Positions 5,283-35,148 of a DNA stretch of 64,000 nt are shown piece by piece. The notes beneath the pieces are model-generated. The model worked only from the letters and a program-made list of their open reading frames with translations. It made no database searches and was not told the DNA's origin. The stretch is from positions 1,753,760 to 1,817,759 of the forward strand of contig OZ244910.1 in assembly GCA_965221735.1 (NCBI GenBank). The letters are read 5' to 3'. A program made the translations under genes and the position numbers. This DNA is from Tepidiformaceae bacterium. GTDB taxonomy: Bacteria > Chloroflexota > Dehalococcoidia > Tepidiformales > Tepidiformaceae. The first letter of the stretch is position 1. Every line of letters starts with the position of its first letter.

Positions 5283-5357
5283 TGGCTCCCCGGCGAGGAT
5301 TCGAACCTCGAACCTAGCGGTTAACAGCCGCTCGCTCTACCGTTGAGCTACCGGGGA
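5283..5357 (-). tRNA. tRNA-Asn (anticodon GTT), CCA encoded
   Basis: The reverse complement folds as a 75-nt cloverleaf: TCCCCGG TA GCTC AACGGTA GAGC G AGCGG CTGTTAA CCGCT AGGTT CGAGG TTCGAAT CCTCG CCGGGGA G CCA. Confidence 0.95.
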
Positions 5358-19121: not shown

Positions 19122-19192
19122 CGCCCGAAGAGCGGCGTACCGCCGCTTTGGGAACACAATGTCGCAACCTGCGATTCACCTGGAGCACAACC

Positions 19193-20722
19193 ATGCCGGC
19201 GATCATTGCCGTTATCGCCGGCCTCGTGGGCATTCTGATCGGGATCGGCGTGGGCTACGTCCTGCGCCGCCGCTCTGCGCAGCACTCATTGCAGCAGGCG
19301 GAGGAGGACGCCCGGCAGATACTCTCTGAGGCCGAAACCAAGAGCCGCGAGCTTGAGCTGGAGACGAAGGAGGAGGCGCTCAAGCTCCGAAACGAAGCAG
19401 AAGCCGATATCCGCGAGTGGCGTTCGGAACTCTCGCGGACGGAAAACCGCCTCTCCCAGCGCGAGGAGAACCTCGACCGCAAGGCCGAGAGCATCGATTC
19501 GCGGGAAATCGCCCTGCAGGACCGCTCGGAGGCGCTGCGCGCTTCCGAGGAAGCGATCGCCGAACTGCGTGCCGAACAGGAGCGCGCCATCGAGCGAGCC
19601 AGCGGGCTGAGCCGCGAGGAGGCGCGCGAGCAGTTGCTCGCTGCCGTGGACGACGAGATCCGCGACGAGGCCGGACGGCGCGTGCGCGAGATGGAGCGGG
19701 AGGCGGAGCAGACCGCGGCGGCGCGCGCCCGCGACGTCATCGCGACGGCTATCCAGCGGTACGCCGGCGAGGTGACCGCGGAGACGACCGTCTCCGTCGT
19801 GCCAATCGGCAGCGATGACATGAAGGGGCGCATCATCGGGCGCGAGGGGCGCAACATCCGCGCCATCGAAGCCGCCACGGGCGTCGACCTGATCATCGAC
19901 GACACGCCCGACGCGGTGACTGTTAGCTCCTTCGATCCGGTTCGGCGCGAGGTGGCGCGGGTAGCGCTGGCCGGCCTCGTCCAGGACGGGCGCATCCACC
20001 CGACGCGCATCGAGGAGGCGGTCTCGAAAGCGCAGAGCAACGTCGACACGACGATGGCGGAATCCGCGGAGGCGGCGGCGGCAGAGGCCGACGTGCTCAA
20101 CCTCCACCCCGAGGTGATGAAGATCTTCGGGCGGCTGCGGTACCGCACGAGCTACGGCCAGAACGTGATGCGCCACTCCGTGGAGACGGCGCACATCGCC
20201 GCGATGATCGCGCGGGAGGTGGGCGCGGACGAGGACATCGCCCGTGCGGGCGGCTTCCTGCACGACCTCGGCAAGGCCGTCGACCACGAGGTCGAGGGGA
20301 CGCACGCGTTGATCGGGGCCGACATCGCGCGGCGCTACCGCGTACGCGAGGAGGTCGCGCACTGCATCGAGGCGCACCACGAGGAGGTCGAGCTCGGCAC
20401 CGTGGAGGCGGTGATCGTGCAGATGGCGGACGCCATCAGCGGCGGGCGCCCCGGCGCGCGGCGCGAGTCGCTCGACAGCTACGTGAAGCGGCTCGAGACG
20501 CTGGAGCAGATCGCGAAGGACCGGAAGGGCGTGGAGCAGGCGTTCGCCATCCAGGCGGGACGCGAGCTCCGCATCGTGGTCAGCCCCGAGCAGGTCGACG
20601 ACCTCGAGTCGATGCGGATCGCGCGGGACGTGAGCCAGAAGATCGAGGAGAGCGTCGACTATCCGGGACAGATCAAGGTGACCGTCGTGCGGGAGACGCG
20701 CGCGACCGAGTACGCGCGCTAG
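19193..20722 (+). CDS. rny: Ribonuclease Y
   Basis: N-terminal TM (MPAIIAVIAGLVGILIGIGVGYVL), coiled coil, KH domain (MKGRIIGREGRNIRAIE), HD domain (HSVETAHIAAMIA...FLHDLGK). Confidence 0.92.
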   Translation: MPAIIAVIAGLVGILIGIGVGYVLRRRSAQHSLQQAEEDARQILSEAETKSRELELETKEEALKLRNEAEADIREWRSELSRTENRLSQREENLDRKAESIDSREIALQDRSEALRASEEAIAELRAEQERAIERASGLSREEAREQLLAAVDDEIRDEAGRRVREMEREAEQTAAARARDVIATAIQRYAGEVTAETTVSVVPIGSDDMKGRIIGREGRNIRAIEAATGVDLIIDDTPDAVTVSSFDPVRREVARVALAGLVQDGRIHPTRIEEAVSKAQSNVDTTMAESAEAAAAEADVLNLHPEVMKIFGRLRYRTSYGQNVMRHSVETAHIAAMIAREVGADEDIARAGGFLHDLGKAVDHEVEGTHALIGADIARRYRVREEVAHCIEAHHEEVELGTVEAVIVQMADAISGGRPGARRESLDSYVKRLETLEQIAKDRKGVEQAFAIQAGRELRIVVSPEQVDDLESMRIARDVSQKIEESVDYPGQIKVTVVRETRATEYAR

Positions 20723-20730
20723 GCGACGAC

Positions 20731-21594
20731 GTGGCGATCGGCGACTTCCACCTGCACAGCACCGCCTCCGACGGCGTACGCAGCCCTACGTGGGTGATGG
20801 AGACGGCGGCCGCGAACGGGGTGCGCACGCTGGCGCTGACCGACCACGACACGACCGAGGGGCTCCCTGAGGCGCGAGCGGCCGCGGAGGCGGGGGGGCT
20901 GCGCCTCATCTCGGGCATCGAGCTGAGCGTCGACCTCGACGGGGCGGATGCGCACCTGCTCGGGTTCGGCTTCGACACCAGGCACGCGCCGCTGCAGGCG
21001 TACCTGAGCGAGCAGCGCGAAGGCCGCGTGGGGCGGATGAAGCGGATGGTGCGCGTGCTCGGGGAACACGGCGTGACGATCGATGTGGAGCGCGTGCAGG
21101 CGATCGCCGGTGATGCCAGCGTGGGGCGGCCGCACGTCGCGCGTGCGCTCGTCGAAGCGGGATACGTCGAGAGCGTTGCGGAAGCGTTCGGTACGTGGCT
21201 TGGGGACGGCAAGCCGGCGCACATCACGCGCGACCGGTTGACCCCGGCGGAAGCGATCGCGCTGCTGCACGAGGCCGGCGGGGTGGCTTTCATCGCACAC
21301 CCCATCTACCTCGGGGACGACTACGAAGCGAAGGTGCGCGACCTCGCCGGGATGGGGCTCGACGGCCTGGAGACGTACTACAAGTTCTACGACGCCGAGA
21401 CCGTGGCGGCGCACGAGGCGCTCTCGGCGAAGCTCGGGCTGGCCCGCTCGGGCGGGAGCGATTACCACAGTCTGGGCAACGCCAACGACCGCGAGATCGG
21501 CGACATCCCCTTCGAGGACAGCGCCGTCGCGGAGTTCGTGGCCTTCCTCGAGGAGCGCGCGGTCCCCGGACTGGCGCAGGCGGGAGCATTCTGA
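20731..21594 (+). CDS. PHP-domain metal-dependent phosphoesterase (TrpH/YciV-like)
   Basis: GDFHLHSTASDG, LALTDHDT, AHP, GGSDYHS motifs. GTG start. Confidence 0.8.
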   Translation: MAIGDFHLHSTASDGVRSPTWVMETAAANGVRTLALTDHDTTEGLPEARAAAEAGGLRLISGIELSVDLDGADAHLLGFGFDTRHAPLQAYLSEQREGRVGRMKRMVRVLGEHGVTIDVERVQAIAGDASVGRPHVARALVEAGYVESVAEAFGTWLGDGKPAHITRDRLTPAEAIALLHEAGGVAFIAHPIYLGDDYEAKVRDLAGMGLDGLETYYKFYDAETVAAHEALSAKLGLARSGGSDYHSLGNANDREIGDIPFEDSAVAEFVAFLEERAVPGLAQAGAF

Positions 21595-22043
21595 TGGACG
21601 TGAACCTGGGCGCGGACGAGATCGAGCGGATCATCCCGCACCGCTATCCGATGCTGCTGGTCGACCGGATGGTCGAGATCGAGGACGGAGCGCGCGGGGT
21701 CGGCATCAAGAACGTGACGGCGAACGAGTGGTTCTTCGAGGGGCACTTCCCCGGGAACCGGGTGATGCCGGGCGTGCTGATCGTGGAGGCGCTGGCGCAG
21801 GTGGCGGCGATCACGCTGCTGCGGGACGTGGACCAGGCGGGGAAGATCCCGATGTTCGGGGGCATCGAGAAGATGCGCTTTCGGCGTCCGGTGACGCCGG
21901 GGGATCAGTTGCGGCTGGAGTTCACGCTGGAGCGGATGCGGGGGCCGGTGGGACGCGGGGCGGTGGAGGCGAGCGTCGACGGGCAGGTGATGGCGGACGG
22001 CACCATCTCGTTCGCGCTGGTGGAGAACCCGACCGGCCAGTAG
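21594..22043 (+). CDS. fabZ: 3-hydroxyacyl-ACP dehydratase FabZ
   Basis: IIPHRYPMLLVDR...FFEGHFPGNRVMPGVLIVEALAQ. Confidence 0.9.
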   Translation: MDVNLGADEIERIIPHRYPMLLVDRMVEIEDGARGVGIKNVTANEWFFEGHFPGNRVMPGVLIVEALAQVAAITLLRDVDQAGKIPMFGGIEKMRFRRPVTPGDQLRLEFTLERMRGPVGRGAVEASVDGQVMADGTISFALVENPTGQ

Positions 22044-22097
22044 CGGCGGCGGAGCCCTCGCAACCCGTTACCGGAGGCTTCGGGGGCGTCTGCTAGC

Positions 22098-22589
22098 ATG
22101 GCTTTGATGCCCGAAACGGTGGAATGCGCCCGCCATGCCGGTGTCGAGACCGCCCTGCGCTGCAGCCGCTGCGAAGCCCCGATCTGTCCGTCCTGCCTGA
22201 TCCAGTCGCCCGTGGGGGCGCGCTGCCCGGACTGCGCGCGCGTCGTTCGCGCGCCCATGTACGTGCTCTCCGGTCAGACCATGTTGCGGGCGGGGGTGGC
22301 GTCGGTGGTGGGCGGGGTGGTGATGGGGCTGCTGTGGCGGCTGATCCTGCTGCCGTTCACGCGAGGGTTCTTCGCACTGCTGGTGGGGGTGGCGCTGGGG
22401 TACGCGTTCACGCGGCTGCTGGAGTTCGCGACGGGCGGGAAGCGGGGGCCGGGGATGGTGGGGTTCGCGATCGGCGGGATCGTGCTGGCGTGGGCGGTGC
22501 TGGTGGTGCTGGGGGGAACGGCGTTCGCGCTGTGGGGGCTGGTGGCGGCGGGGATCGGGGTGTGGTTCGCGTACCAGAATCTGCGCTAG
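22098..22589 (+). CDS. Membrane protein with an N-terminal Cys-rich zinc-ribbon/B-box-like domain
   Basis: CARHAGVETALRCSRCEAPICPSCLIQSPVGARCPDC followed by about 4 TM helices. Confidence 0.6.
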   Translation: MALMPETVECARHAGVETALRCSRCEAPICPSCLIQSPVGARCPDCARVVRAPMYVLSGQTMLRAGVASVVGGVVMGLLWRLILLPFTRGFFALLVGVALGYAFTRLLEFATGGKRGPGMVGFAIGGIVLAWAVLVVLGGTAFALWGLVAAGIGVWFAYQNLR

Positions 22590-22645
22590 GGACTGCGCGG
22601 CAAAGGCGGGACCACCGGCGGGGCCGCTCGCCTACAATCCGAAGC

Positions 22646-22948
22646 ATGTCCGAGGCGGTCACCAGCGCCAGCGAGCCACGCATGACGCCGCCGGTGGTCG
22701 CGACCGTGGCGTTTGCCGTGGGCGCCCTCCGTGCGGTCGTCGCCGCCCTGCTCCTGATGGTTATCCCCTGGACGACGGTGGGCACTTTCGCGGTGGTACT
22801 CGGGGCGACGTCGCTCGGGGTGGCGCTGCCACGCCTGGTCGAGCGGATCTCGGGCCGGAAGCATGACCCATTCATCCTGGCCTTCTACGGGACCGGGCTT
22901 CTCAAGGCCGGGGTCGTGACGATCGTGGTGTACTTGCTGCTCCAGTAG
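22646..22948 (+). CDS. Small hypothetical membrane protein
   Basis: 100 aa with 3 hydrophobic segments. TACAAT (22633-22638) lies 7 nt before the ATG. Confidence 0.45.
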   Translation: MSEAVTSASEPRMTPPVVATVAFAVGALRAVVAALLLMVIPWTTVGTFAVVLGATSLGVALPRLVERISGRKHDPFILAFYGTGLLKAGVVTIVVYLLLQ

Positions 22949-22967
22949 GGGCAGTCCGAACGGCCGC

Positions 22968-23210
22968 TCAGGCGATGGCGGCAGCCACCAGCACGAAGGC
23001 GAGCGTAATCACGCTAACGACGGCGACGGCGACGAGGTCGCGGCGGACGTAGCGGTAGTCGGTGGCGACGTGGTGCTCGCGGGGCGTCTGGTCGGGAATG
23101 CGGGCCGCGGCCTCGGCGGTGGGCTGGGGCGCGGGGGTCGCGCCGGGACGCGGGAGGGTCGAGGCGCGCTCGCGACGGCGGCGCTGGCGTCGGGGTCGGC
23201 GGGAGCTCAT
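22968..23210 (-). CDS. Possible small tail-anchored protein with an Arg-rich N-terminus
   Basis: 80 aa: MSSRRPRRQRRRRERAST...DLVAVAVVSVITLAFVLVAAAIA. Only the terminal part of the long antisense ORF 22968..25004 lies outside acs. Confidence 0.35.
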   Translation of the reverse strand: MSSRRPRRQRRRRERASTLPRPGATPAPQPTAEAAARIPDQTPREHHVATDYRYVRRDLVAVAVVSVITLAFVLVAAAIA

Positions 23211-23321
23211 CGACGGCGATCGTACCGCGAGGCCCGGTGGCGCGATAGCCGGGGCCGTATCGGTAGAATCCCGCGCACGGACTGAAACGCGGGGCGCCGG
23301 CGAGCGCGCAGGAGGCCAGAC

Positions 23322-25288
<1,967 letters not shown>

Positions 25289-25292
<4 letters not shown>

Positions 25293-25660
25293 GGGGCGTC
25301 CGGGTTCAGCGGCAGGCGGAGCTGGTCGCGCTCCGGGGCGCTGCCGGCGAGCAGCAGCTCGACGGCGGCGACCGCGGCCTCGCGCTGGTCGCGCGCTTCG
25401 GCACGGTCGAGGAGGAGCGGCGCCAGCGCCTCGATGGCGCGGGCGAGCTCGGGGTCCTCGGCGCAGAGGCGCTCGTGCGCCTCGGCGGCGCTGAGGCCCT
25501 CGGCCCAGTAGCGGCGCACGGCCGCGGCCACGAACGCTCCGCCCAGGACATCAACGCAGTCGCCCGCCTCGTAGCCGGCTTCGACCAGCGCGCGCTGGAC
25601 GATCTCGATGGCTTCGTTGCGGTCGCGGCCGCGCAGGTCGAGGCGGCGGTCCTCGGTCAT
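25289..25660 (-). CDS. Hypothetical protein translationally coupled to ligD
   Basis: 123 aa (MTEDRRLDLRGRDRNEAIEIVQRALVEAGYEAGD...). The ATG overlaps the ligD TGA. No family recognised. Confidence 0.45.
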
Positions 25661-28377
25661 GCGTCGATCCCGAGAAGGGCGGTCAGGTCCTGCTTGGCGT
25701 CGAGGATGCCGGCCCAGAGGTCGCCGGTTTCGGCGAAGCGGTCGGGGGCGGTGAGCACGGTGAAGTCGGTCGGGTAGAGGTCGTCGAGCTCGTCCCAGCG
25801 GACGGGGACGGATACGGGGGCGCCGGGCCTGGCGCGGGGCGAGAAGACGGCGGCGACGTTCTTGGAGCGGGCGTTCTGGTTCACGTCGAGGAAGATCTTG
25901 CCGGTGCGTTTCTCCGAGGCCCACTCCAGGGTGACGTCGCGGGGCATGCGGGCAAGCAGCTCGCCGCTGACGGTCTCGCAGAGGGAGCGGATGACGGGGT
26001 AGGGGAACTGGCGGAGCACGGGGACGTAGATGTGCAGGCCGGTCGCGCCCGATGTCTTCACGTAGGAGGGGAGAGCGGCGGCATCGAGGATCTCCTTGAA
26101 GGCGCGGGCCACCTCGACCGTCTTGGCGAAGGCCTTGCGGTTGAGCTGGGGTTCCTCGCCGGCCGCCTCGTCGCCCCGGTAGATGTAGGGGTCGAGGTCG
26201 AAGAGGAGGAAGTCCGGGTAGTTGAGGACGGACGCCTCGACGTTGTCGCGGGAGGCGGTGAAGTCACGCGGGAGGCCGTGCGCGTCGGGCCCGGGGGAGA
26301 CGCGGGCCATGGTCGCGTGGAACTCGAGGTTGGCGAGCTGCCCAAGCCAGAGCAGGGTCGGGAGGTTGTTGCAGAGGAGGAAGTCGCGGTCGCCGCTCGC
26401 GCCCTCGGAGTGGACGGGCACGGTCTCGACGAATTCGGGGGGCGGCCCTTCGGAGTGCTTCTGGTAGAAGTGCAGGTCGCCGATGCCGTTGGGGTAGCGG
26501 GTGAGGGTGATGAGGCGGTCGCGGAGGTGGGGCAGCATCATCGGGGCGACGGTAGCGAGGTAGCGCAGCAGGTCGCGCTTGGTGACGGCGCGCTGGGCGC
26601 CGTGCTCGGGCCAGAGCGCTTTTTCGAGATTCGTGACGGGTATCTCGTGGCCATCGACATTGAGGCGTAGCTCCTCGTGACTGTCGTCCAGCTGGGCGAG
26701 CACCGAGGCAACCTGGCTCGCAGGCGACGGGGCGATGGGAGGCGCAGGGGCAGGGGAGGGCTGCGTCACGAGGAAGACGGCGTCCTCGGGGGCGACGTCG
26801 GGGCGGAGGCGCTTGAAGACGGGAGCGCGCAGGAGGCCCTGCGACGTCACCTCCGTGTACTCGACCTCGACGACGAGCTCGGGGCGGACGAAGGTCGCGC
26901 CCTGGGCCTCGGGCGGGGTTTCGGGGAAGGGGGAGGCGTCGGTGGCGAGGGAGTCGAGTTGCGCGCGGAGGTCGACGAGCATGGCGTCGGTGAAGCCACC
27001 GCCGGCGCGGCCCCGGTAGGTCAGGGCGCCGTCTTCCTCGAGGGCAGCGAGCAGGAGGGCTCCGAACGTCGGCTCGCGGAGGCCCTCGCCGGGGGTGAAG
27101 CCGGCGACGACGAACTCGGCGGTCTGGCGCGCCTTGATCTTGGCCCAGGAGTCGGAGCGCTTGCCGGGCAGGTAGCGGCTGCCCCGGCGCTTGGCGACGA
27201 CGCCCTCCAGGCCAAGCGCGACGGCTCCCTCGTAGGCCTCTGTGCCCTCGGCCTGGAAGTGCTCGACAAGGGCGACGGGACCGACCGGCATGAGGACGCG
27301 AGCGAGCGCTTCCTTGCGCTCTTCGAGGATGACGCCGGTGAGGTCGAAGCCGTCGAGGTGGAGCAGGTCGAAGGCCATGTAGGTCACGGGCACGCGCGCC
27401 TCGGCGGAGGCGATGTCGATCTCGCCGGCGAGGTTCATGCGCTGCTGGAGGAGTTCGAAGGAGGGGACGCCACGCTCATCGAAGGCGCAGATCTCGCCAT
27501 CGAAGACAGCCTCGGCGACGGGCTGGGCGGCGAGGGCGGCGACAAGGCCGGGGTAGGTGGCGGTGAGGTCGGTGCCGCGACGGGAGTAGAGGCGCGCCTC
27601 GCCCCCGGAGACGTGAGCGACGGCGCGGATGCCGTCGAGCTTGGGCTCGAAGAGCCAGTCGGGATGGGAAAAGGGGTCGCGGACGCTCGCCATCATCGGG
27701 GGGAGGGTGTCGGGGAAGGGCGCGGCGCTCGAGCCGTTGAGGGCGTCGGGGGTGTAGTCGGAGGGCGCCTTGCGGTGGCGGGGGAGGCGGCCGTCGCGGA
27801 TGTCGTCGAGCGAGAGACCGGAGACGACGGAGCGGTCGAGGGCGGTGAGGTCGGCGTCGGAATCGGCGAGGGGGTCGTCGTGCTTGAGCAGGAGCCAGTC
27901 GGTCGAAGTCTTGACCAGCGACCAGGAGCCTTTCAGCTTGCGGCCGCGCATCTGGACCGAGATCTTGCCGGCTGCGATGGCGGCCTCCATCGCGGTCTCG
28001 GCCTCCTCGCGGGAGGAGAAGTCGTAGACGCGCTCGTGTTCGGGGGCGTAGGTGCCGGCGTCCCAGACGATGACCTGGCCGGCGCCGTATTGCCCCTTCG
28101 GGATGACGCCCTCGAAGGCGGAGTAGGCGATGGGGTGGTCCTCGGTCATGACGGCGTGGCGGCGGACGGCGGGGTCGGTGGAGGGGCCGCGGGGCACGGC
28201 CCAGGACTTCATCACGCCGCCGACCTCAAGGCGAACGTCGTAGTGGAGGCGGGTGGCGTCGTGCTTCTGGACGACGAAGGTGAGCGGTCCAGCGCGCCCC
28301 TCGGGGACGGCGTCGGGGGGCTCGGGGGTGGCCGCGAAGTCGCGCTTCTCGCGGTATTGGTCGAGGGGCTCGGTCAT
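25657..28377 (-). CDS. ligD: Multidomain ATP-dependent DNA ligase D (phosphoesterase, ligase, polymerase/primase)
   Basis: 906 aa. N-terminal PE domain (FVVQKHDATRLHYDVRLE), central ligase (EPKLDGIRAV), C-terminal LigD polymerase domain. Confidence 0.92.
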   Translation of the reverse strand: MTEPLDQYREKRDFAATPEPPDAVPEGRAGPLTFVVQKHDATRLHYDVRLEVGGVMKSWAVPRGPSTDPAVRRHAVMTEDHPIAYSAFEGVIPKGQYGAGQVIVWDAGTYAPEHERVYDFSSREEAETAMEAAIAAGKISVQMRGRKLKGSWSLVKTSTDWLLLKHDDPLADSDADLTALDRSVVSGLSLDDIRDGRLPRHRKAPSDYTPDALNGSSAAPFPDTLPPMMASVRDPFSHPDWLFEPKLDGIRAVAHVSGGEARLYSRRGTDLTATYPGLVAALAAQPVAEAVFDGEICAFDERGVPSFELLQQRMNLAGEIDIASAEARVPVTYMAFDLLHLDGFDLTGVILEERKEALARVLMPVGPVALVEHFQAEGTEAYEGAVALGLEGVVAKRRGSRYLPGKRSDSWAKIKARQTAEFVVAGFTPGEGLREPTFGALLLAALEEDGALTYRGRAGGGFTDAMLVDLRAQLDSLATDASPFPETPPEAQGATFVRPELVVEVEYTEVTSQGLLRAPVFKRLRPDVAPEDAVFLVTQPSPAPAPPIAPSPASQVASVLAQLDDSHEELRLNVDGHEIPVTNLEKALWPEHGAQRAVTKRDLLRYLATVAPMMLPHLRDRLITLTRYPNGIGDLHFYQKHSEGPPPEFVETVPVHSEGASGDRDFLLCNNLPTLLWLGQLANLEFHATMARVSPGPDAHGLPRDFTASRDNVEASVLNYPDFLLFDLDPYIYRGDEAAGEEPQLNRKAFAKTVEVARAFKEILDAAALPSYVKTSGATGLHIYVPVLRQFPYPVIRSLCETVSGELLARMPRDVTLEWASEKRTGKIFLDVNQNARSKNVAAVFSPRARPGAPVSVPVRWDELDDLYPTDFTVLTAPDRFAETGDLWAGILDAKQDLTALLGIDA

Positions 28378-28758: not shown

Positions 28759-29592
28759 CTAGTCGGCGGCGACGGCGGCCTTCTCGGCTGCGGTCGCGCC
28801 GTTGTCGCCGGTGGCCTCGCCCTCCTTGCGGGCCCTGGCGGCCTCGACGCTCGCGCGGAGGGCGGCCATCAGGTCGACGGCGGGCTGCGGCGCGGCGGCC
28901 TCGGGGGTCGCGACCTCCTGGCCCTCCAGCTTGGCCTCAATGATGGTCATCAGGGCTTCGCGGTACTGGTCCTTGTACTTCTCCGGGTCGAAGGGCTCCT
29001 CGAGCATCTCGATGAGGGCGCGGGCCATCTCCATCTCCTCCTCGGAGACCTCGTCGACGGCGGCGGCCTCACCGGGGTCGCGGATCTCGTCGGGGTAGAA
29101 GAGGGTCTCGAGGATGAGCTGGTCGCCGCGGGCGCGGAGGGCGCAGAGGCGCTCCTTCGTGCGGATGGCGACCTTGGCGATGGCGATGAGCCCCTTCGCC
29201 TGCATCGCGCGAATGAGGAGGGAGTAGGGCTTGATGCCGGCGTCGTCCGGGGCGAGGTAGTAGGACTTCTCGTAGTGAACCGGGTCGATCTCGGCCTCCT
29301 CGACGAAGGCGGTGAGCTCGATGGTGTGCTTGGTGGGGAGGGGGAGCTTCTCCAGGTCCTCGTCGTCGAGGACGACGTAGCGGTCCTTGGCGTACTCGTA
29401 GCCCTTTACGATCTCGTCGTAGGGCACTTCCTGCTCCTCGACGGGATCCCAGCGGAGCATGCGGACACGGGTGTTGGTATCGCGCCGGAGCTGGCGGAAG
29501 CCGATGTCCTTGCTCTCGGTGGCGGGGAAGAGGCGGATGGGGATGCTCACCATGCCGAAGCTGATGACACCCTTCCAGATCGCTCGGGGCAT
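28759..29592 (-). CDS. ku: Ku DNA end-binding protein
   Basis: MPRAIWKGVISFGMVSIPIRLFPAT... The start is taken at the internal ATG of ORF 28759..29673. Confidence 0.92.
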   Translation of the reverse strand: MPRAIWKGVISFGMVSIPIRLFPATESKDIGFRQLRRDTNTRVRMLRWDPVEEQEVPYDEIVKGYEYAKDRYVVLDDEDLEKLPLPTKHTIELTAFVEEAEIDPVHYEKSYYLAPDDAGIKPYSLLIRAMQAKGLIAIAKVAIRTKERLCALRARGDQLILETLFYPDEIRDPGEAAAVDEVSEEEMEMARALIEMLEEPFDPEKYKDQYREALMTIIEAKLEGQEVATPEAAAPQPAVDLMAALRASVEAARARKEGEATGDNGATAAEKAAVAAD

Positions 29593-29724
29593 GACGCGCC
29601 TCCGGATAGCGCCAACGTATGTTGGCGGCACCCATGAGTGTACGACCAGCGGCACGGCTGCGTCAGGTCGCACACAGGGGGAGCCGGGCAGGGGTGCTAA
29701 ACTGTAAAGGCCGAGTTCCCGCGG

Positions 29725-29845
29725 ATCCGTCGATTCGCCGGGGAGCGGGGGAACCCTTTGTTGGGGTGAATTGCGCGAGAGCGCATAGGCGATCTCCGAC
29801 GCCGAACCCGTCAGCTAACCCCGCAGGCGTTCGGAGGCTCGCGAT
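29725..29845 (+). promoter_or_regulatory. ydaO/yuaA-class (c-di-AMP) riboswitch, boundaries approximate
   Basis: The + strand carries the three conserved blocks of the class: AGCGGGGGAACCC (29744-29756), UUGGGGUGAAUU (29761-29772) and CCGAACCCGUCAGCUAACCCCGCAGGCGUUCGG (29802-29834). Flanking pairing: CGUCG 29729-29733 with CGACG 29796-29800. It lies 94 nt upstream of the KamA-family ATG. Confidence 0.75.
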
Positions 29846-29938
29846 TACGCGACCAGCCTCCCAGCCGGGCGGTTTCGAACAGAGACCGCCACTTCCGCCA
29901 ACACGGCGGGTATACAGTAGCCAGAGGAGGCATCCCTT

Positions 29939-31312
29939 ATGACGAGCACCGTAGTTGACCTCTCCGAGGAGTCCCCGGAGCGCGCCAAGTACCGCGCGAT
30001 CACCCTGCACAACATCGCGGGACTGCCCCAGGCCGAGCGGCTGAGCAAGGATCAGCGCTTCGCCATCGACGTGGTGTCGCGGGTGCTGCCGTTCAAGACG
30101 AACAATTATGTCGTGGACGAGCTGATCAACTGGGACGATGTTCCCAACGACCCGATCTTCACGCTGACGTTCCCGCAGCAGCACATGCTGCAGGACGAGC
30201 ACTTCGACGAGGTGGCGACGCTGGTCTCGCGGGAGGCCTCGCGGGCCGAGATCGACGAGGCGGCGAACCGCATTCGCATGACGCTCAACCCGCACCCGGC
30301 GGGGCAGCTCGAGCACAACGTGCCGGTCCTCTACGAGGAGACGGTCGAGGGGCTGCAGCACAAGTACGAGGAGACGGTTCTGCTCTTCCCGAGCAACGGG
30401 CAGACGTGCCATGCGTACTGCACGTTCTGCTTCCGCTGGCCGCAGTTCGTCGGGCTCGACGACCTGAAGTTCGCGACGAAGCAGGCCAACGGGCTGGTCG
30501 CCTACCTGCGCGAGCGCCCGCGGGTGAGCGACGTGCTCATCACCGGGGGCGACCCGATGGTGATGAAGACGCGGCGCTTCAAGCAGTACATCGACCCGAT
30601 CCTGGAAGACGATCCGCCGAACCTGCGGACGATCCGCATCGGCACGAAGGCGCTGGGGTACTGGCCGTACCGGTTCACGACGGACGACGACGCGGAGGAG
30701 ATGCTGGACATCTTCCGGCGCATCACGGCGACCGGGCGGCACCTCTCCATCATGGCGCACTTCAACCACCCGCGTGAGCTGAGCACGCCGGCGGTGCGCG
30801 AGGCGACGGAGCGCATCCGCGAGACGGGCGCGCAGATCCGGACGCAGTCGCCGATCATGCGGAACATCAACGACAACTCGGACGCATGGGCGGAGATGTG
30901 GCGCGAGCAGGTGCGGATCGGGATGATCCCGTACTACATGTTCGTGGCGCGCGACACGGGCGCGAAGCACTTTTTCGAGATCCCGCTGGTGCGGGCCTGG
31001 GAGATCTTCCGCGGCGCCTACAACCAGGTCAGCGGTCTGGCGCGGACGGTGCGCGGGCCGAGCATGTCGGCGGAGCCCGGCAAGGTGGCCGTCTCGGGGC
31101 CGGCAGAGGTCGCGGGCCAGAAGGTGCTCACGCTGAACTTCCTGCAGGGCCGCGACCCGGACTGGGTCGGGCGTCCGTTCTTCGCCCAGTACGACGAGTC
31201 GGCGACCTGGCTGAACGAGCTTCGCCCGGCCTTCGGGGAGGAGAAGTTCTTCTTCGAGGACGAGCTGGCGCACCGCTACGAGGCAGGCATCGCCGCCGGT
31301 ACGGAAGCCTAG
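29939..31312 (+). CDS. KamA-family radical-SAM aminomutase-like protein
   Basis: 457 aa. Radical-SAM cluster motif CHAYCTFCFRW. Lysine-2,3-aminomutase-like layout with a long N-terminal extension. Confidence 0.8.
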   Translation: MTSTVVDLSEESPERAKYRAITLHNIAGLPQAERLSKDQRFAIDVVSRVLPFKTNNYVVDELINWDDVPNDPIFTLTFPQQHMLQDEHFDEVATLVSREASRAEIDEAANRIRMTLNPHPAGQLEHNVPVLYEETVEGLQHKYEETVLLFPSNGQTCHAYCTFCFRWPQFVGLDDLKFATKQANGLVAYLRERPRVSDVLITGGDPMVMKTRRFKQYIDPILEDDPPNLRTIRIGTKALGYWPYRFTTDDDAEEMLDIFRRITATGRHLSIMAHFNHPRELSTPAVREATERIRETGAQIRTQSPIMRNINDNSDAWAEMWREQVRIGMIPYYMFVARDTGAKHFFEIPLVRAWEIFRGAYNQVSGLARTVRGPSMSAEPGKVAVSGPAEVAGQKVLTLNFLQGRDPDWVGRPFFAQYDESATWLNELRPAFGEEKFFFEDELAHRYEAGIAAGTEA

Positions 31313-31339
31313 CCCGCCGGCGAACCGGCACGACGCCAG

Positions 31340-31367
31340 ACGGGGCCCGTTCGACGGGCCCCGTTTT
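31340..31367 (+). terminator. Rho-independent terminator after the KamA-family gene
   Basis: Perfect 11-bp arms ACGGGGCCCGU / ACGGGCCCCGU with a 3-nt loop, followed by UUU. Confidence 0.75.
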
Positions 31368-31415
31368 CGTGTCCGGGCCAGCAGGGCAACGGCGGGCGGG
31401 CGGGGCGGCTATCCT

Positions 31416-31817
31416 TTGCGCGTGGCAGACCCGGGAACGCACACGGAAGCGGAGCAGGAAGCGCTCCTCGCGAACGAGGGGTTCTACCGCGCGCTGGGCA
31501 ACTCGGACATGGGCGCGATGGAGAACGTGTGGGCGCGCCTTGCGCCGGTGACGTGCCTGCACCCCGGCTGGACGCTCCTGGCCGGCCGGGAGGACGTGCT
31601 GGAGAGCTGGCGAACGATCCTCGCGAACCCGAACCAGCCCCGCATCGTCGGCGGCGGCGCGAGCGTGACCGTGGTCGGGAACGCGGCGGTCGTGCTGTGC
31701 CGGGAGGTCGTCTCAGGCAGCCCGCTCTACGCGACGAACATCTTCGTGCGCGAGGAGGGGTCGTGGCGCATGACACACCACCACTCGGGACCGGTGATGG
31801 TTCACCGACCGGAGTAG
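31416..31817 (+). CDS. SnoaL/NTF2-like (DUF4440-like) protein
   Basis: EGFYRALGNSDMGAMENVWA...ATNIFVREEGSWRMTHHH. TTG start, or GTG at 31422. Confidence 0.6.
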   Translation: MRVADPGTHTEAEQEALLANEGFYRALGNSDMGAMENVWARLAPVTCLHPGWTLLAGREDVLESWRTILANPNQPRIVGGGASVTVVGNAAVVLCREVVSGSPLYATNIFVREEGSWRMTHHHSGPVMVHRPE

Positions 31818-31819
31818 TT

Positions 31820-31861
31820 GGTCGGTGGTCGGTGGTCGGTGGTCGGTGGTCGGTGGTCGGT
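31820..31861 (+). repeat. Six perfect tandem copies of GGTCGGT
   Basis: Read directly. Begins 2 nt after the TAG stop at 31815-31817. Confidence 0.95.
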
Positions 31862-31868
31862 GAAGGAA

Positions 31869-31901
31869 CACCAGCCACTACTCACCAGCCACTATTCACT
31901 A
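31869..31901 (+). repeat. 14-nt tandem repeat CACCAGCCACTA(C/T)T, about 2.4 copies
   Basis: Read directly. The last partial copy overlaps the stop codon of the convergent crotonase gene. Confidence 0.85.
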
Positions 31902-32750
31902 TGGGCGGAAGCCTTCGCGGTTGAAGGGCTCGTCGCGCCATGAGAGGGCGGCGCGGAGGCCTTCGGCGTTGGAGATGCGGCCGAACTCGCCGGCGCCGGG
32001 ACGCATGCGTCCGCTGAGGGCGTGCCACTGGGGGCCGGTGTTGAGGGCGGTGCGGATGCCCTGGATCTCGTAGGTCTGGTTGATGGCAAGCTTGTTCGCG
32101 GCGAGCAGGTCGGGGGCGATGCTGGAGAGGGCGCGCACTTCCTTCATGACCTCCTCCTCAAGAGAGTCGGCGGGGAAGCTCTTCGCGATCCAGCCCCACT
32201 CGGCGGCCTCCTTGCCGGTCAGGCTGTTGCCGCTGAGCTGGAGGTACTTGGCGCGGCCCATCTGGAGCTTCCAGGGGAAGTAGATGACGTCGGGCGTGGT
32301 CATGCCGCGCATGGGCGGGTAGCCGATCTTGCAGTCGTCGGAGGCGAAGGCGATGTCGCACATCGACATGAGCTCGGAGCCGCCGGCGAGGCAGTAGCCG
32401 TGGACCATGGCGACGACGGGCTTGAGCAGGTCCCAGATGGTCATCCAGTCGCGGACACAGCTGCGGGCGAAAGGGTCGGTCCAGGTGTCGAAGTGCTTCT
32501 CCGAGACGAGGATGCCGGCGCGGGCGTCGGCGGGCTGGTTGGGGGTGATGTCGTACCCCGCGCAGAAGGCGCGTCCGGCGCCGCGCACGAGGATGACGGT
32601 CACGTCGTCGTCGCGTTCGGCGACCTTGAGGGCGTCGACGAACTCACCGCGGAGGTCGCGGTTGAGCGCGTTCAGCTTCTCCGGGCGGTTGAGGGTGATC
32701 GTGGCGATCTTGTCTTCGGTGGAGTAGAGGATGTTCTCGTACTCGGGCAT
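31899..32750 (-). CDS. Enoyl-CoA hydratase/isomerase (crotonase) family protein
   Basis: MPEYENILYSTEDKIATITLNRPEKLNAL...GAGRAFCAGYD...GYCLAGGSELMSMCD. Confidence 0.85.
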   Translation of the reverse strand: MPEYENILYSTEDKIATITLNRPEKLNALNRDLRGEFVDALKVAERDDDVTVILVRGAGRAFCAGYDITPNQPADARAGILVSEKHFDTWTDPFARSCVRDWMTIWDLLKPVVAMVHGYCLAGGSELMSMCDIAFASDDCKIGYPPMRGMTTPDVIYFPWKLQMGRAKYLQLSGNSLTGKEAAEWGWIAKSFPADSLEEEVMKEVRALSSIAPDLLAANKLAINQTYEIQGIRTALNTGPQWHALSGRMRPGAGEFGRISNAEGLRAALSWRDEPFNREGFRP

Positions 32751-32787
32751 TTGAAAGGCCTCCTGCAGGTTGCGGGATTGTAGGGGG

Positions 32788-35148
32788 TCAGGGCGTGGTG
32801 AGGGGGGCGACCATGAAGGGCGGAGCGGGGACAGCGGGCTCGTGGGCGGTGGCGCCCACCTCGTAGAGGCGGGCGATGGCCCCGGCGTCGAGGCCGAGCA
32901 GCTCACCGAAGACGTAGTCGTTGGCCTCGGCGAAGCGGGGGGCGTGACTGCGGACGGCCGGCGCCGTCTTCGAGAAGCGCCACATGAAACCGGGATAGGG
33001 GTAGACGCCGGTGTCGGGGTGCTCGATGTCGACCCAGGCGCCGCGCGCGTGGAAGTGGGGATCGGCGTGGAGCTGCCAGTTGTGGAGGATGGAGGCGGCG
33101 GGGACTCTCACCGCCTGCAGCTCACGCACGGCCTCGAAGCGGGTGAGGGGTTGCGTCCAGGCAGAGAGGCGCTCGTCGATCTCCTGGCGGCGGGCGACGC
33201 GGGCGGGGCCGTCGAGCGCGGCGAGGTCGTCGAGGCCGGCGACCCCGCAGAGGGCGCGCCACTGCTCGTCGGTGCGGACGGCGACGGCGACCCAGTCGTC
33301 GCGGCCTTCGACGGGGTAGGCGCCGGTGGGGGCGTCGGCGGGTTCGATGTTGCCCTGGCGGGGCATGGGCGCGCCGTGCTCGTGGACGTGGGCGAAGGCG
33401 GCGACCATGAAGGTCATGGCGGACTCGGTCAGGGCCATGTCGACGTGCGAGCCGCGACCGGTGCGTTCGAGCCGCTCGAGCCCGGCGGCAGCGGCGATGG
33501 CGGCGTGGGCCCCGGCGATCGGGTCGGCAATGAAGGAGCCGGTGCGGTAGGGGCGCTCGTCTCCGGGGTAGCCGGTAGTCGAGGCGAGGCCGCTGGCGGC
33601 CTCGATGTTCGAGCCGTAGGCGATCCAGTCGCGGCGCTTGCCGGTGGCGCCGAATCCACTGATCGAGACCATCACGAGGCGGGGATTGACCTCGGCCAGC
33701 TTCTCGTAGGCGAGGCCGAGGTTGGGCATCACGCGGGCGCTGTTGTTCTCGATGACGACGTCGGCCTTCGCGGCGAGGTCGAGGAAGACCTGGCGGCCCT
33801 CGTCCGTGGCCATGTTGAGGGCGATGTCGCGCTTGTTGCGGTTCATCTGGTTGAAGTAGCCGGAGCGGTTGTAGTGGTACTTGCCGGGGTCGAGGCCGGC
33901 GTAGTGGCTGCCGCGGGTGGCGGGCCGCGTGGCCAGCTCGACCTTGATGACCTCGGCGCCGAGGTCGGCGAGGTGGCGGCAGGCGATGGGTCCGGCCCAG
34001 TTGTTCGTGACCTCGATGACGCGCAGTCCCTCAAAGGGGGAGGCCGAGGGGGTTCGCTGGCCGGCGGAGTCCGGCGGGGCATCGCCGGCGAGGGCTCGGG
34101 CGAGGGTGTCGGGCGGGCCGACTTCCGGCCAGGGGTCGGTCCAGCGGTAGGGGCGGCCGGGCATGGGCTTGCCGCGGCAATCGCGGAAGTACTCGCGGTC
34201 GGCGAGGTGGTCGTCGGCGAGGAGCCCGGGGGCGTCGGCCATGAAGACGACGGGGACGCGCAGGGACTGCCCCTTCTCGGCGATCTCCTTCACGGTATGG
34301 GCCGCGCACCACTCGCGGACGATGGGCTCGATCTCGTCGATGCGGTCGCGGCGCCCGAGGATGGACTGGTAGTCCTCTTGGTTCGCGAGGTCGGGGCGGC
34401 CGCAGAGGAGGAGGACGTTCTGGTGGACGATGAAAGAGAAGAAATGGACCCAGCCGTCCTTCGCGCGGACGAGGTCGGAGCCGGTGCGCATGAAGACGCG
34501 GCCCTCGTGGGTCCAGGCGACGGTGGTGCTCCAGTGGGCGCCGAGCATGGCCTCGGCGGCGCTGACCTCGATCTCCTGGCCTTCACCCGTGCGGCGGGCG
34601 TGGCGGAGGGCGGCGAGCGAGGCGAAGGCGAGCTGCAGTCCGGCGTGGAACTGGGCCTGGTGGCCGGGAACCCGGAGGGGCACGCGCTCGGGGTGGCCGG
34701 CGATCGACCAGTACCCGCCGAGGGCGTAGTCGGTCAGCTCGTCGCCGGCCCAGCGGGCGTAGGGGCCGCTGCGGCCGTAGTGGTCGGCGTTGGCGACGAC
34801 GATGGCGGGGTTGGCGGGGCGGAGGAGCTCGAAGAGCGCGTCCTGCTCGAGCTCGGGCAGGGCAAAGTCGGTCAGGACGAGGTCGAAGTGGGGAGCGAGG
34901 GCGGGGAGGGCGGCAAGGAGCGCGTCGCGGTCGAGGCGCTCGTCGTGGAGCTCGACGCCGTCCTCGAAGTAGGCGTACATGAGGTCGTTGGGGGGCCAGT
35001 CCCCGGGGCGGGCGTCGGTCCAGCGCCACCATGAGCAGCGCGCGCCGAGGTCGGCGAGGAGGCGGGTGGCGTAGGCGCCGGCGACGCCGCGGGCGAGGTT
35101 GAGCACGCGGAAGTCGATCGGGACGGTCCCGTTGGGCATGCGGGGCAC
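32788..35148 (-). CDS. Tandem fusion of two family-III (CaiB/BaiF) CoA-transferase domains
   Basis: 786 aa. The N-terminal half is divergent (FRVLNLARGVAGAYATRLLADLGA...). The C-terminal half is canonical (LRVIEVTNNWAGPIACRHLADLGAEVIKVE). Pro/Ser-rich linker ...GDAPPDSAGQRTPSASP... Confidence 0.8.
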   Translation of the reverse strand: MPRMPNGTVPIDFRVLNLARGVAGAYATRLLADLGARCSWWRWTDARPGDWPPNDLMYAYFEDGVELHDERLDRDALLAALPALAPHFDLVLTDFALPELEQDALFELLRPANPAIVVANADHYGRSGPYARWAGDELTDYALGGYWSIAGHPERVPLRVPGHQAQFHAGLQLAFASLAALRHARRTGEGQEIEVSAAEAMLGAHWSTTVAWTHEGRVFMRTGSDLVRAKDGWVHFFSFIVHQNVLLLCGRPDLANQEDYQSILGRRDRIDEIEPIVREWCAAHTVKEIAEKGQSLRVPVVFMADAPGLLADDHLADREYFRDCRGKPMPGRPYRWTDPWPEVGPPDTLARALAGDAPPDSAGQRTPSASPFEGLRVIEVTNNWAGPIACRHLADLGAEVIKVELATRPATRGSHYAGLDPGKYHYNRSGYFNQMNRNKRDIALNMATDEGRQVFLDLAAKADVVIENNSARVMPNLGLAYEKLAEVNPRLVMVSISGFGATGKRRDWIAYGSNIEAASGLASTTGYPGDERPYRTGSFIADPIAGAHAAIAAAAGLERLERTGRGSHVDMALTESAMTFMVAAFAHVHEHGAPMPRQGNIEPADAPTGAYPVEGRDDWVAVAVRTDEQWRALCGVAGLDDLAALDGPARVARRQEIDERLSAWTQPLTRFEAVRELQAVRVPAASILHNWQLHADPHFHARGAWVDIEHPDTGVYPYPGFMWRFSKTAPAVRSHAPRFAEANDYVFGELLGLDAGAIARLYEVGATAHEPAVPAPPFMVAPLTTP

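Follow-up and report, generated by a model that had tools for sequence, protein, structure and literature searches.

Control of osmolyte synthesis by a riboswitch for cyclic di-AMP (c-di-AMP) has been published for Dehalobacter sp. CF, where the ablA gene, interpreted as one for osmolyte synthesis, carries a tandem Na+-I/c-di-AMP riboswitch (White et al. 2022, PMC9337991). The c-di-AMP riboswitch of nlpC in C. glutamicum lacks a canonical terminator, and reporters indicate that it represses translation. In the scheme proposed for it, the partner of a CTCC is an upstream GGAG as long as ligand is absent, and the GGAG of the ribosome-binding site (RBS) once ligand is present (PMC9960051). Known glutamate 2,3-aminomutases include Eam of C. 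difficile (Ruzicka & Frey 2007) and MmarC7_1783 of M. maripaludis, which is reported to be an osmolyte enzyme (Tunckanat et al. 2022). Here we analysed a stretch of 64,000 nucleotides (nt) from a Tepidiformaceae bacterium (Chloroflexota, Dehalococcoidia; contig OZ244910.1), referred to below as the window, in which a leader RNA of the ydaO/yuaA class (Rfam family RF00379) lies upstream of a gene for a KamA-like radical S-adenosylmethionine (SAM) aminomutase. Our best overall explanation, with a probability of roughly 0.6, is that a c-di-AMP OFF riboswitch acts on a glutamate-type osmolyte aminomutase. The features concerned are the following.

29699..29844 (+): c-di-AMP (ydaO/yuaA class) aptamer, full-length RF00379; P1 is formed by 29710-12 paired with 29826-28
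29793..29799 (+): pseudoknot 5' strand UCUCCGA, in the loop of hairpin 29788-29803; 7-bp duplex with 29831-37
29831..29837 (+): pseudoknot 3' strand UCGGAGG, overlapping GGAGGCU (29833-39), a mimic of the Shine-Dalgarno sequence (SD) and anti-anti-SD
29833..29861 (+): hairpin 1, GGAGGCU (29833-39) paired with the anti-SD AGCCUCC (29855-61) and enclosing CGCG-AUUA-CGCG; minimum free energy (MFE) fold, predicted ON state
29868..29910 (+): spacer hairpins at 29868-90 and 29894-29910, placing anti-SD and SD side by side; MFE folds
29926..29941 (+): SD GGAGG (29926-30) and ATG (29939-41), from sequence
29939..31312 (+): gene for a radical-SAM/pyridoxal phosphate (PLP) aminomutase of 457 amino acids (aa), from an uncharacterised KamA-like clade, with C157/C161/C164, R166, R338, S375 and K382
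31340..31372 (+): intrinsic terminator ending the monocistronic unit, a 10-bp G+C stem followed by UUUUCGUG

The window was scanned with cmscan against 4227 Rfam families. The scan yielded two matches only, a tRNA at 5286-5357 (-) and RF00379 at 29699-29844 (+). The RF00379 match scored 78.7 bits against a gathering threshold of 38 (E = 1.3e-16) and was full-length, spanning model positions 1-134 of 134 without truncation. An initial annotation of this DNA had assigned the leader to the ydaO class from three motifs, which are indeed present on the + strand in the order given (AGCGGGGGAACCC at 29744-56, TTGGGGTGAATT at 29761-72 and CCGAACCCGTCAGCTAACCCCGCAGGCGTTCGG at 29802-34). The assignment is upheld by a covariance-model score of about twice the gathering threshold; the annotated start has to be moved, as the aptamer begins about 26 nt farther upstream, at 29699. 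We also ran RNAalifold on 15 aptamers, comprising that of the window, 12 found upstream of orthologues and two extra divergent copies. It recovered the nested helices, with 27 consensus pairs and compensatory changes at 17 of them, and this covariation supports the pseudo-symmetric fold that had been predicted.

The loop-to-3'-tail pseudoknot of RF00379 was present as well. In the crystallised ydaO construct 4QLM the loop CUCCUUC is complementary to the tail GAAGGAG, and the pseudoknot is described as stable (PMC5393176); the loop UCUCCGA and the tail UCGGAGG of the window are the counterparts of this pair. Loop and tail covary across the 15 aptamers (CUCC/GGAG; CUAC/GUAG in L003; CCC/GGG in L052, L054 and L072; GCCUU/AAGGC in the two divergent copies, with L numbers denoting related loci). 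Loops paired with their own tails gave a mean duplex energy of -9.4 kcal/mol, against -6.8 kcal/mol with the tails of other sequences and -5.2 kcal/mol with shuffled tails. The RF00379 element upstream of the KamA-like gene is almost certainly a genuine c-di-AMP riboswitch. As an RNA it is a regular member of its family, which adds a member to the regulon and not a new principle.

We collected 80 genomic loci encoding relatives of the 457-aa protein; the Rfam scan covered 66 of these, all but the 14 archaeal ones. In 12 of the 14 Chloroflexota loci, RF00379 was found directly upstream of the orthologue and on the same strand (58.6-96.8 bits), while the scan did not find it in L002, L070 and the unclassified L077. 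The closest relatives of the protein came from metagenome-assembled genomes of Dehalococcoidia/Tepidiformaceae, with 98% identity in L001 and 87% in L002. Another riboswitch class that might name the ligand or substrate in other phyla was sought upstream of the orthologue, and none was found in 51 bacterial loci. A second c-di-AMP aptamer, facing in the opposite direction to the KamA-like leader, was observed in L006 (3226-3358, -, 56.9 bits) and L017 (3392-3526, -, 60.9 bits). It precedes a divergent HemL/GntE-like class-III aminotransferase of 425-430 aa that stays under all NCBIfam cut-offs, and two divergent riboswitch-controlled amino-group enzymes adjoin each other in these loci.

Downstream of the aptamer, the anti-SD AGCCUCC (29855-61) has two mutually exclusive partners. 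The unconstrained MFE fold pairs it with the nearer GGAGGCU (29833-39). The SD GGAGGC (29926-31) has the same sequence as this mimic, and the two duplexes are nearly equal in energy (-12.0 kcal/mol with the mimic, -11.9 kcal/mol with the SD). When the nucleotides of the pseudoknot tail (29831-37) were blocked in silico, the MFE fold paired AGCCUCC with the SD across the two spacer hairpins, and the probability that the SD is unpaired fell from 0.50 to 0.00 in the window and from 0.58 to 0.00 in L001. A 7-nt block slid along the window leader closed the SD only when placed within 29829-29844; elsewhere the probability was 0.34-0.53. Tail blocking lowered this probability in seven of 13 leaders (window, L001 and L004-L008), from 0.98 to 0.20 in L004, 0.78 to 0.02 in L005, 0.72 to 0.10 in L006, 0.45 to 0.23 in L007 and 0.69 to 0.36 in L008.

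All three hairpins persist in the leader of L001 although its sequence has diverged: hairpin 2 has exchanged a U-A pair for C-G, and hairpin 3 is made of other sequence altogether. The tail of L004-L008 and L017 finds its partner in a distal GCCUCUCC anti-SD, which adjoins the SD in L004-L008; this is another layout with the same logic. The pairing is GAGAC/GUCUC in L006 and GAGGC/GCCUC in L005. The MFE fold of the whole window leader also pairs ACUGUA (29701-29706), at the 5' edge of the aptamer, with UACAGU (29913-29918), just 5' of the SD. This pairing, of which 5 of 6 bp are retained in L001, may be a long-range clamp or may be due to chance.

The initial annotation had correctly located CCTCC (29857-61), GGAGG (29926-30) and the ATG (29939), and had suggested that CCUCC pairs with the SD in a translational OFF platform. 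We retain this pairing as the ligand-bound state, but it is not the default fold, since the unconstrained MFE uses the nearer GGAGG. The suggestion thereby becomes sharper: the CCUCC-SD pairing competes with the closer GGAGGCU at 29833-39, which is also the pseudoknot 3' strand and would therefore offer a ligand-dependent way to free the anti-SD. In the mechanism we propose, GGAGGCU, located just 3' of P1, would pair with the anti-SD in the absence of ligand and leave the SD open. Binding of c-di-AMP would stabilise the pseudoknot between loop (29793-99) and tail (29831-37) and withdraw GGAGG from the anti-SD; the freed anti-SD would then pair with the SD across the two spacer hairpins and turn expression OFF. 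High c-di-AMP would thus repress translation of the monocistronic aminomutase gene. OFF with ligand is the direction that the pseudoknot logic predicts and that every characterised member of the class would lead one to expect. Given the similar scheme put forward for nlpC of C. glutamicum, where reporters indicate translational repression, we consider a translational OFF switch the most likely mechanism, with reasonable though not high confidence.

Regulation might instead be transcriptional, by premature termination or in a Rho- or RNase-dependent manner, as in the B. subtilis prototype; we regard this as unlikely. All well-studied Firmicute members terminate transcription (PMC9960051), and in L004-L008 and L016 a strong GC hairpin plus a U-rich stretch directly follows the aptamer. 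Because some relatives have such elements, the platform is not uniform among them. In the window, however, a simple terminator scan found no terminator-like site between aptamer and ATG, which rules out a terminator as its platform and agrees with the earlier remark that an intrinsic terminator is absent there. The same scan also missed the strong 31340-31364 hairpin that was found by folding. Inspection of the sequence showed that none of the three leader hairpins of the window precedes a U tract, whereas a canonical terminator does occur in this organism downstream of the gene. Moreover, the complementarity between pseudoknot tail, anti-SD and SD is specific and recurs in relatives. Read as a translational OFF switch, the leader would provide a clean, mutation-testable model for a ydaO pseudoknot that drives a translational, not a transcriptional, platform.

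For the encoded enzyme, Pfam gave only a sub-threshold radical-SAM match. The NCBIfam models scored as follows.

TIGR00238 (KamA family): 122.9 bits, below the cut-off of 199.2
TIGR03820 (AblA): 115.5 bits, below 525.4
TIGR03822 (AblA-like-2): 111.1 bits, below 396.25
TIGR03821 (EpmB): 100.2 bits, below 369.3
TIGR04468 (arginine 2,3-aminomutase): 98 bits, below 600
TIGR04368 (glutamate 2,3-aminomutase, Eam): 94.3 bits, below 650

By NCBIfam criteria the 457-aa protein is a relative of the KamA family, not a member. The KamA-family label it had received earlier stands in the broad sense of KamA-like; in the strict sense it fails, as the score is under the family cut-off and both lysine-binding Asp residues are gone. 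The sole solved relative found by sequence was lysine 2,3-aminomutase (LAM) 2a5h (phmmer E = 1e-23). This structure was also the top Foldseek match of the AlphaFold model (predicted local distance difference test score of 84.6), with E = 4e-17 over 398 columns, and was followed by generic radical-SAM folds with E of about 1e-5. An alignment by phmmer, profile hidden Markov model, hhalign and MAFFT consistently placed C157/C161/C164 on LAM C125/C129/C132, R166 on R134 and R338 on D293. By MAFFT and ungapped extension, S375 corresponds to LAM D330 and K382 to the PLP lysine K337; the LAM C-terminus used in the alignments was checked against the PDB sequence. The cluster cysteines, R166 and K382 are invariant in the family alignment, so that the residues for KamA-type chemistry are present. 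R338, S375 and K382 are likewise invariant in family sets of 28 and 43 members from bacteria and archaea. In the wider clade, represented at 50% identity, position 338 is mostly Arg and never Asp, and position 375 is Val or Ser.

In LAM, D293 and D330 hold the epsilon-ammonium group of lysine; the glutamate 2,3-aminomutase of C. difficile reportedly has Lys and Asn at these two positions. Because R338 and S375 replace the lysine-binding Asp residues and the other residues are kept, we infer that the aminomutase machinery is intact, that a cationic substrate is excluded and that an anionic side chain is favoured. Aspartate would be degenerate, as a 2,3-shift regenerates aspartate, and glutamate is therefore the simplest candidate.

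The window enzyme may thus be a beta-glutamate synthase, an assignment that we make tentatively, at somewhat below even odds. Of the products suggested in the initial annotation, beta-glutamate would be favoured and beta-lysine disfavoured, given the replaced lysine-binding Asp residues. The enzyme would most likely convert L-glutamate to beta-glutamate, an anionic compatible solute with K+ as counter-ion, and its synthesis would be ON at low c-di-AMP, as upon an osmotic upshift or a need for K+ or solutes. The resemblance to Eam consists in the basic residue at the D293 position, together with genomic context.

The clade is large: the window protein has matches in more than 8000 clusters formed at 90% identity, and members from Dehalococcoidia, Nitrosopumilaceae, Bacteroidota, Ignavibacteria and Burkholderiales share about 60% identity. 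The 150 best 50%-identity representatives all fell within the extended clade, and the names of 20 distant representatives included no methanogen. Distant clade members with N-terminal extensions of 100-440 aa or fusions were also observed (P0247 with 882 aa; P0343, P0346 and P0353 with 511-608 aa), and none of these four could be tied to the methanogen glutamate aminomutase.

In N. maritimus SCM1, beta-glutamic acid reaches 730 mM and exceeds all other identified metabolites in abundance (Heal et al. 2021, PMC8269262). In the literature searched, we found no paper naming a gene for this pool. Orthologues with about 60% identity occur in many Nitrosopumilus genomes; an example is WP_014964110.1 ('MULTISPECIES [Nitrosopumilus]'), and N. 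koreensis AR1 carries the gene with an accession labelled in this way. It is conceivable, although we would not bet on it, that the R338/S375 clade represents a third, unrecognised type of glutamate 2,3-aminomutase that lies behind the beta-glutamate pools of marine ammonia-oxidising archaea and many bacteria, and that in Dehalococcoidia has been wired to c-di-AMP by a translational riboswitch. If so, the clade would supply the candidate beta-glutamate synthase of marine ammonia-oxidising archaea, which would be cheap to test, and c-di-AMP would be linked to production of the anionic partner of K+.

The genomic context of the relatives was compared by all-against-all clustering of open reading frames (ORFs) over the 80 loci. 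No conserved operon partner emerged, only lineage-specific neighbours, and no acetyltransferase, efp or epmA recurred among these loci. Eleven thaumarchaeal loci have a divergent gene for an MscS-type channel directly beside the orthologue, six loci have a Na+/H+ exchanger and four a glutamine synthetase in the vicinity, and in 10 bacterial loci the gene adjoins one for a class I/II aminotransferase. In the substrate pocket, the Asp-to-Arg change would point in the same direction as the MscS neighbour in Nitrosopumilus, towards osmotic and K+ regulation, and the riboswitch would serve as a functional pointer that ties an unstudied, widespread clade to this regulon.

Several lineage-specific arrangements were observed in addition. 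In Nitrosopumilaceae, the flanking divergent channel has 579 aa (L081 3103-7872; L014, L023, L025-L028, L035, L036, L040 and L047), and glutamine synthetase is the next gene on the same strand in several loci. In L007 (5616-6761), L008 (5602-6774) and L017 (5664-6809), a gene for a LysM + M23 peptidase lies 270-323 nt beyond the aminomutase gene and in the same orientation; cell-wall hydrolases are a classic target of c-di-AMP riboswitches. Homologues with 49-57% identity, in which R338 is kept and V375 takes the place of S375, are encoded in L083 (Amycolatopsis sp. AA4 plasmid) and L084 (Rhodococcus sp. DK176 pDK3). The L083 cluster contains an amino-acid dehydrogenase, an aminotransferase, a CoA-transferase, MaoC dehydratases, CoA-ester lyases and a GntR regulator. 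The L084 cluster contains ATP-grasp, carrier-protein, N-hydroxylase and tRNA-ligase-like genes and resembles a small-molecule biosynthetic cluster. The wider clade probably serves several pathways.

Various results weigh against the glutamate-osmolyte explanation or one of its parts. All steps of the argument are computational: the sequences show the existence and conservation of the aptamer, two pairings that exclude each other and the residues of the active site, and from these we deduce in which direction the switch would act, which substrate the enzyme would use and that its product would be an osmolyte. Tail blocking had no effect on the SD in six of 13 related leaders in the folding test, the ligand-free accessibility of the SD in the window is only 0.5, and in several relatives the aptamer is followed by a GC hairpin and a U-rich stretch, so that control may be transcriptional in these. 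In other bacterial phyla, the 51 loci scanned contained no Rfam family of any class. L002, a member of the Tepidiformaceae with 87% identity and the same divergent ku synteny, has a 170-nt spacer (3830-4000) without an aptamer; because it keeps the ku/KamA-like synteny and yet has no aptamer, the riboswitch appears to be lineage-specific and recently gained or lost. The D330/K337 correspondence lies outside the HMMER and hhalign local alignments, which end at LAM 323-324. The score for the Eam family is far under its cut-off. The orthologue could be placed in N. koreensis AR1 and other Nitrosopumilus genomes, but not in that of N. maritimus SCM1 itself. Finally, crotonase and CoA-transferase neighbours and the Amycolatopsis cluster would fit a catabolic role.

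The last of these points leads to an alternative that we consider improbable, on a par with transcriptional control: a genuine riboswitch would govern an enzyme that supplies a CoA-dependent pathway, catabolic or assimilatory, for instance from glutamate via beta-glutamate to glutaconyl- or 3-hydroxyglutaryl-CoA, and not a stored osmolyte. Control by c-di-AMP would then mirror its known coupling to glutamate and K+ homeostasis. A block of SnoaL_3-like, crotonase and double CoA-transferase III genes after the aminomutase gene in the window, L002 and L003 speaks for such a pathway, as do the CoA-transferase/MaoC/CoA-ester-lyase genes around the Amycolatopsis sp. AA4 homologue and the HemL-like class-III aminotransferase with its own c-di-AMP aptamer in L006 and L017. 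However, the window neighbours are convergent and parted from the gene by a strong terminator, the block is missing from most riboswitch-bearing loci, and the actinomycete homologues have V375, not S375. The archaeal MscS channel, the Na+/H+ exchanger and the 730 mM beta-glutamate of N. maritimus point to accumulation of a solute.

That the enzyme is a lysine 2,3-aminomutase (AblA/KamA) making beta-lysine for N-epsilon-acetyl-beta-lysine is very improbable. Public records do annotate it as 'lysine 2,3-aminomutase', and ablA is the only published pair of a c-di-AMP riboswitch and an aminomutase. Yet the TIGR03820 score is 115.5 bits against 525.4, the D293/D330 ligands are replaced by the invariant R338/S375, and an Arg in place of D293 should repel a cationic side chain. 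Furthermore, the window has no ablB-type acetyltransferase next to the gene, and none is a recurring neighbour in the 80 related loci. Since the two lysine-binding Asp residues are replaced and the scores are under the cut-offs, the protein appears to be neither AblA nor EpmB; an EpmB-type enzyme that modifies EF-P, with a riboswitch link unrelated to osmolytes, has a weak similarity to TIGR03821 in its favour but can be practically dismissed, as the 100.2 bits against 369.3 do not show the EpmB clustering once named as a possible refutation, the lysine-binding residues are missing, and no efp or epmA lies near the gene in the window or the related loci.

The remaining genes around the aminomutase gene are listed below.

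25657-28377 (-): LigD, 906 aa, with phosphoesterase, ligase and primase-polymerase domains; divergent, upstream
28759-29592 (-): Ku, 277 aa; divergent, upstream, forming with LigD a complete non-homologous end joining (NHEJ) pair
31416-31817 (+): SnoaL_3-like ORF; downstream
31899-32906 (-): crotonase; downstream

The terminator hairpin at 31340-31364, followed by UUUUCGUG, lies in a segment (31313-31385) that folds with -47.4 kcal/mol (z = -4.4), which confirms the strong terminator noted earlier. The gene is also monocistronic and without an adjacent acetyltransferase, as annotated, with Ku upstream and the SnoaL-like ORF downstream. Two promoters would have to fit into the roughly 106 nt that separate the start of Ku from the aptamer, and a sigma-70 scan found none. 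Upstream of the NHEJ genes lie RNase Y, a PHP-domain protein and acetyl-CoA synthetase (19148-25292), which are housekeeping genes and not osmotic-stress genes. The SnoaL_3-like gene, the crotonase gene and the gene for a 786-aa double CoA-transferase III protein follow the aminomutase gene at 31416-35148 in the window, at 5302-8967 in L003 and at 5340-9087 in L002. This block could reflect CoA metabolism of beta-amino acids or C5-dicarboxylates, or mere synteny. The tRNA of the window scored 70.9 bits.

Compared with the RF00379 class (structures 4QLM/4QLN), the window RNA has the same conserved GGGGUGAAU and CCGAACCCGUCAGCUAACC cores, covarying nested helices and loop-to-3'-tail pseudoknot. 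In contrast to that class, its platform has no terminator, and sequestration of the SD by way of an anti-SD/SD-mimic pair is predicted. A further point of difference is its host, a Dehalococcoidia bacterium with 69% G+C, as calculated over the window. The nlpC riboswitch of C. glutamicum shares with the window the three-element CTCC/GGAG/RBS logic and the lack of a canonical terminator. It regulates a cell-wall peptidase gene, whereas the window riboswitch precedes an aminomutase gene; moreover, the upstream GGAG of the window is recognised as belonging to the 3' strand of the pseudoknot, and anti-SD and SD are set apart by two spacer hairpins. A clear pseudoknot-coupled translational platform, as predicted here, is new.

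The enzyme shares with LAM of C. subterminale (2a5h) the fold, the CxxxCxxC motif and the equivalents of R134 and the PLP Lys337. It differs in its low identity of about 21-28%, in the replacements of D293 by R338, D330 by S375 and G256 by R301, and in having no aligned counterpart of the C-terminal CxCxxC stretch, which forms the Zn site of LAM. With Eam and MmarC7_1783 it would have the proposed reaction in common, and with MmarC7_1783 also the proposed osmolyte role. Eam and the window protein, in which the pair is Arg/Ser, would both carry a basic residue in place of D293; the latter stays outside the Eam family (TIGR04368, 94.3 versus 650 bits). The methanogen glutamate aminomutase is said to have an N-terminal extension of about 160 aa, which the window protein does not have.

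The Dehalobacter ablA system is alike in that a c-di-AMP riboswitch acts on a gene of the KamA superfamily of aminomutases. Its product is taken as a lysine 2,3-aminomutase, and two terminators control the gene. The window, in contrast, has a single riboswitch, no Na+ element, a predicted translational platform and an enzyme from a clade without the lysine-binding Asp residues. The initial annotation had presented osmolyte synthesis under a c-di-AMP riboswitch as a novelty; the concept is not new, because the ablA case in Dehalobacter has been published (PMC9337991). The novelty lies in finding this riboswitch class together with a KamA-like clade that is distinct, very widespread and uncharacterised.

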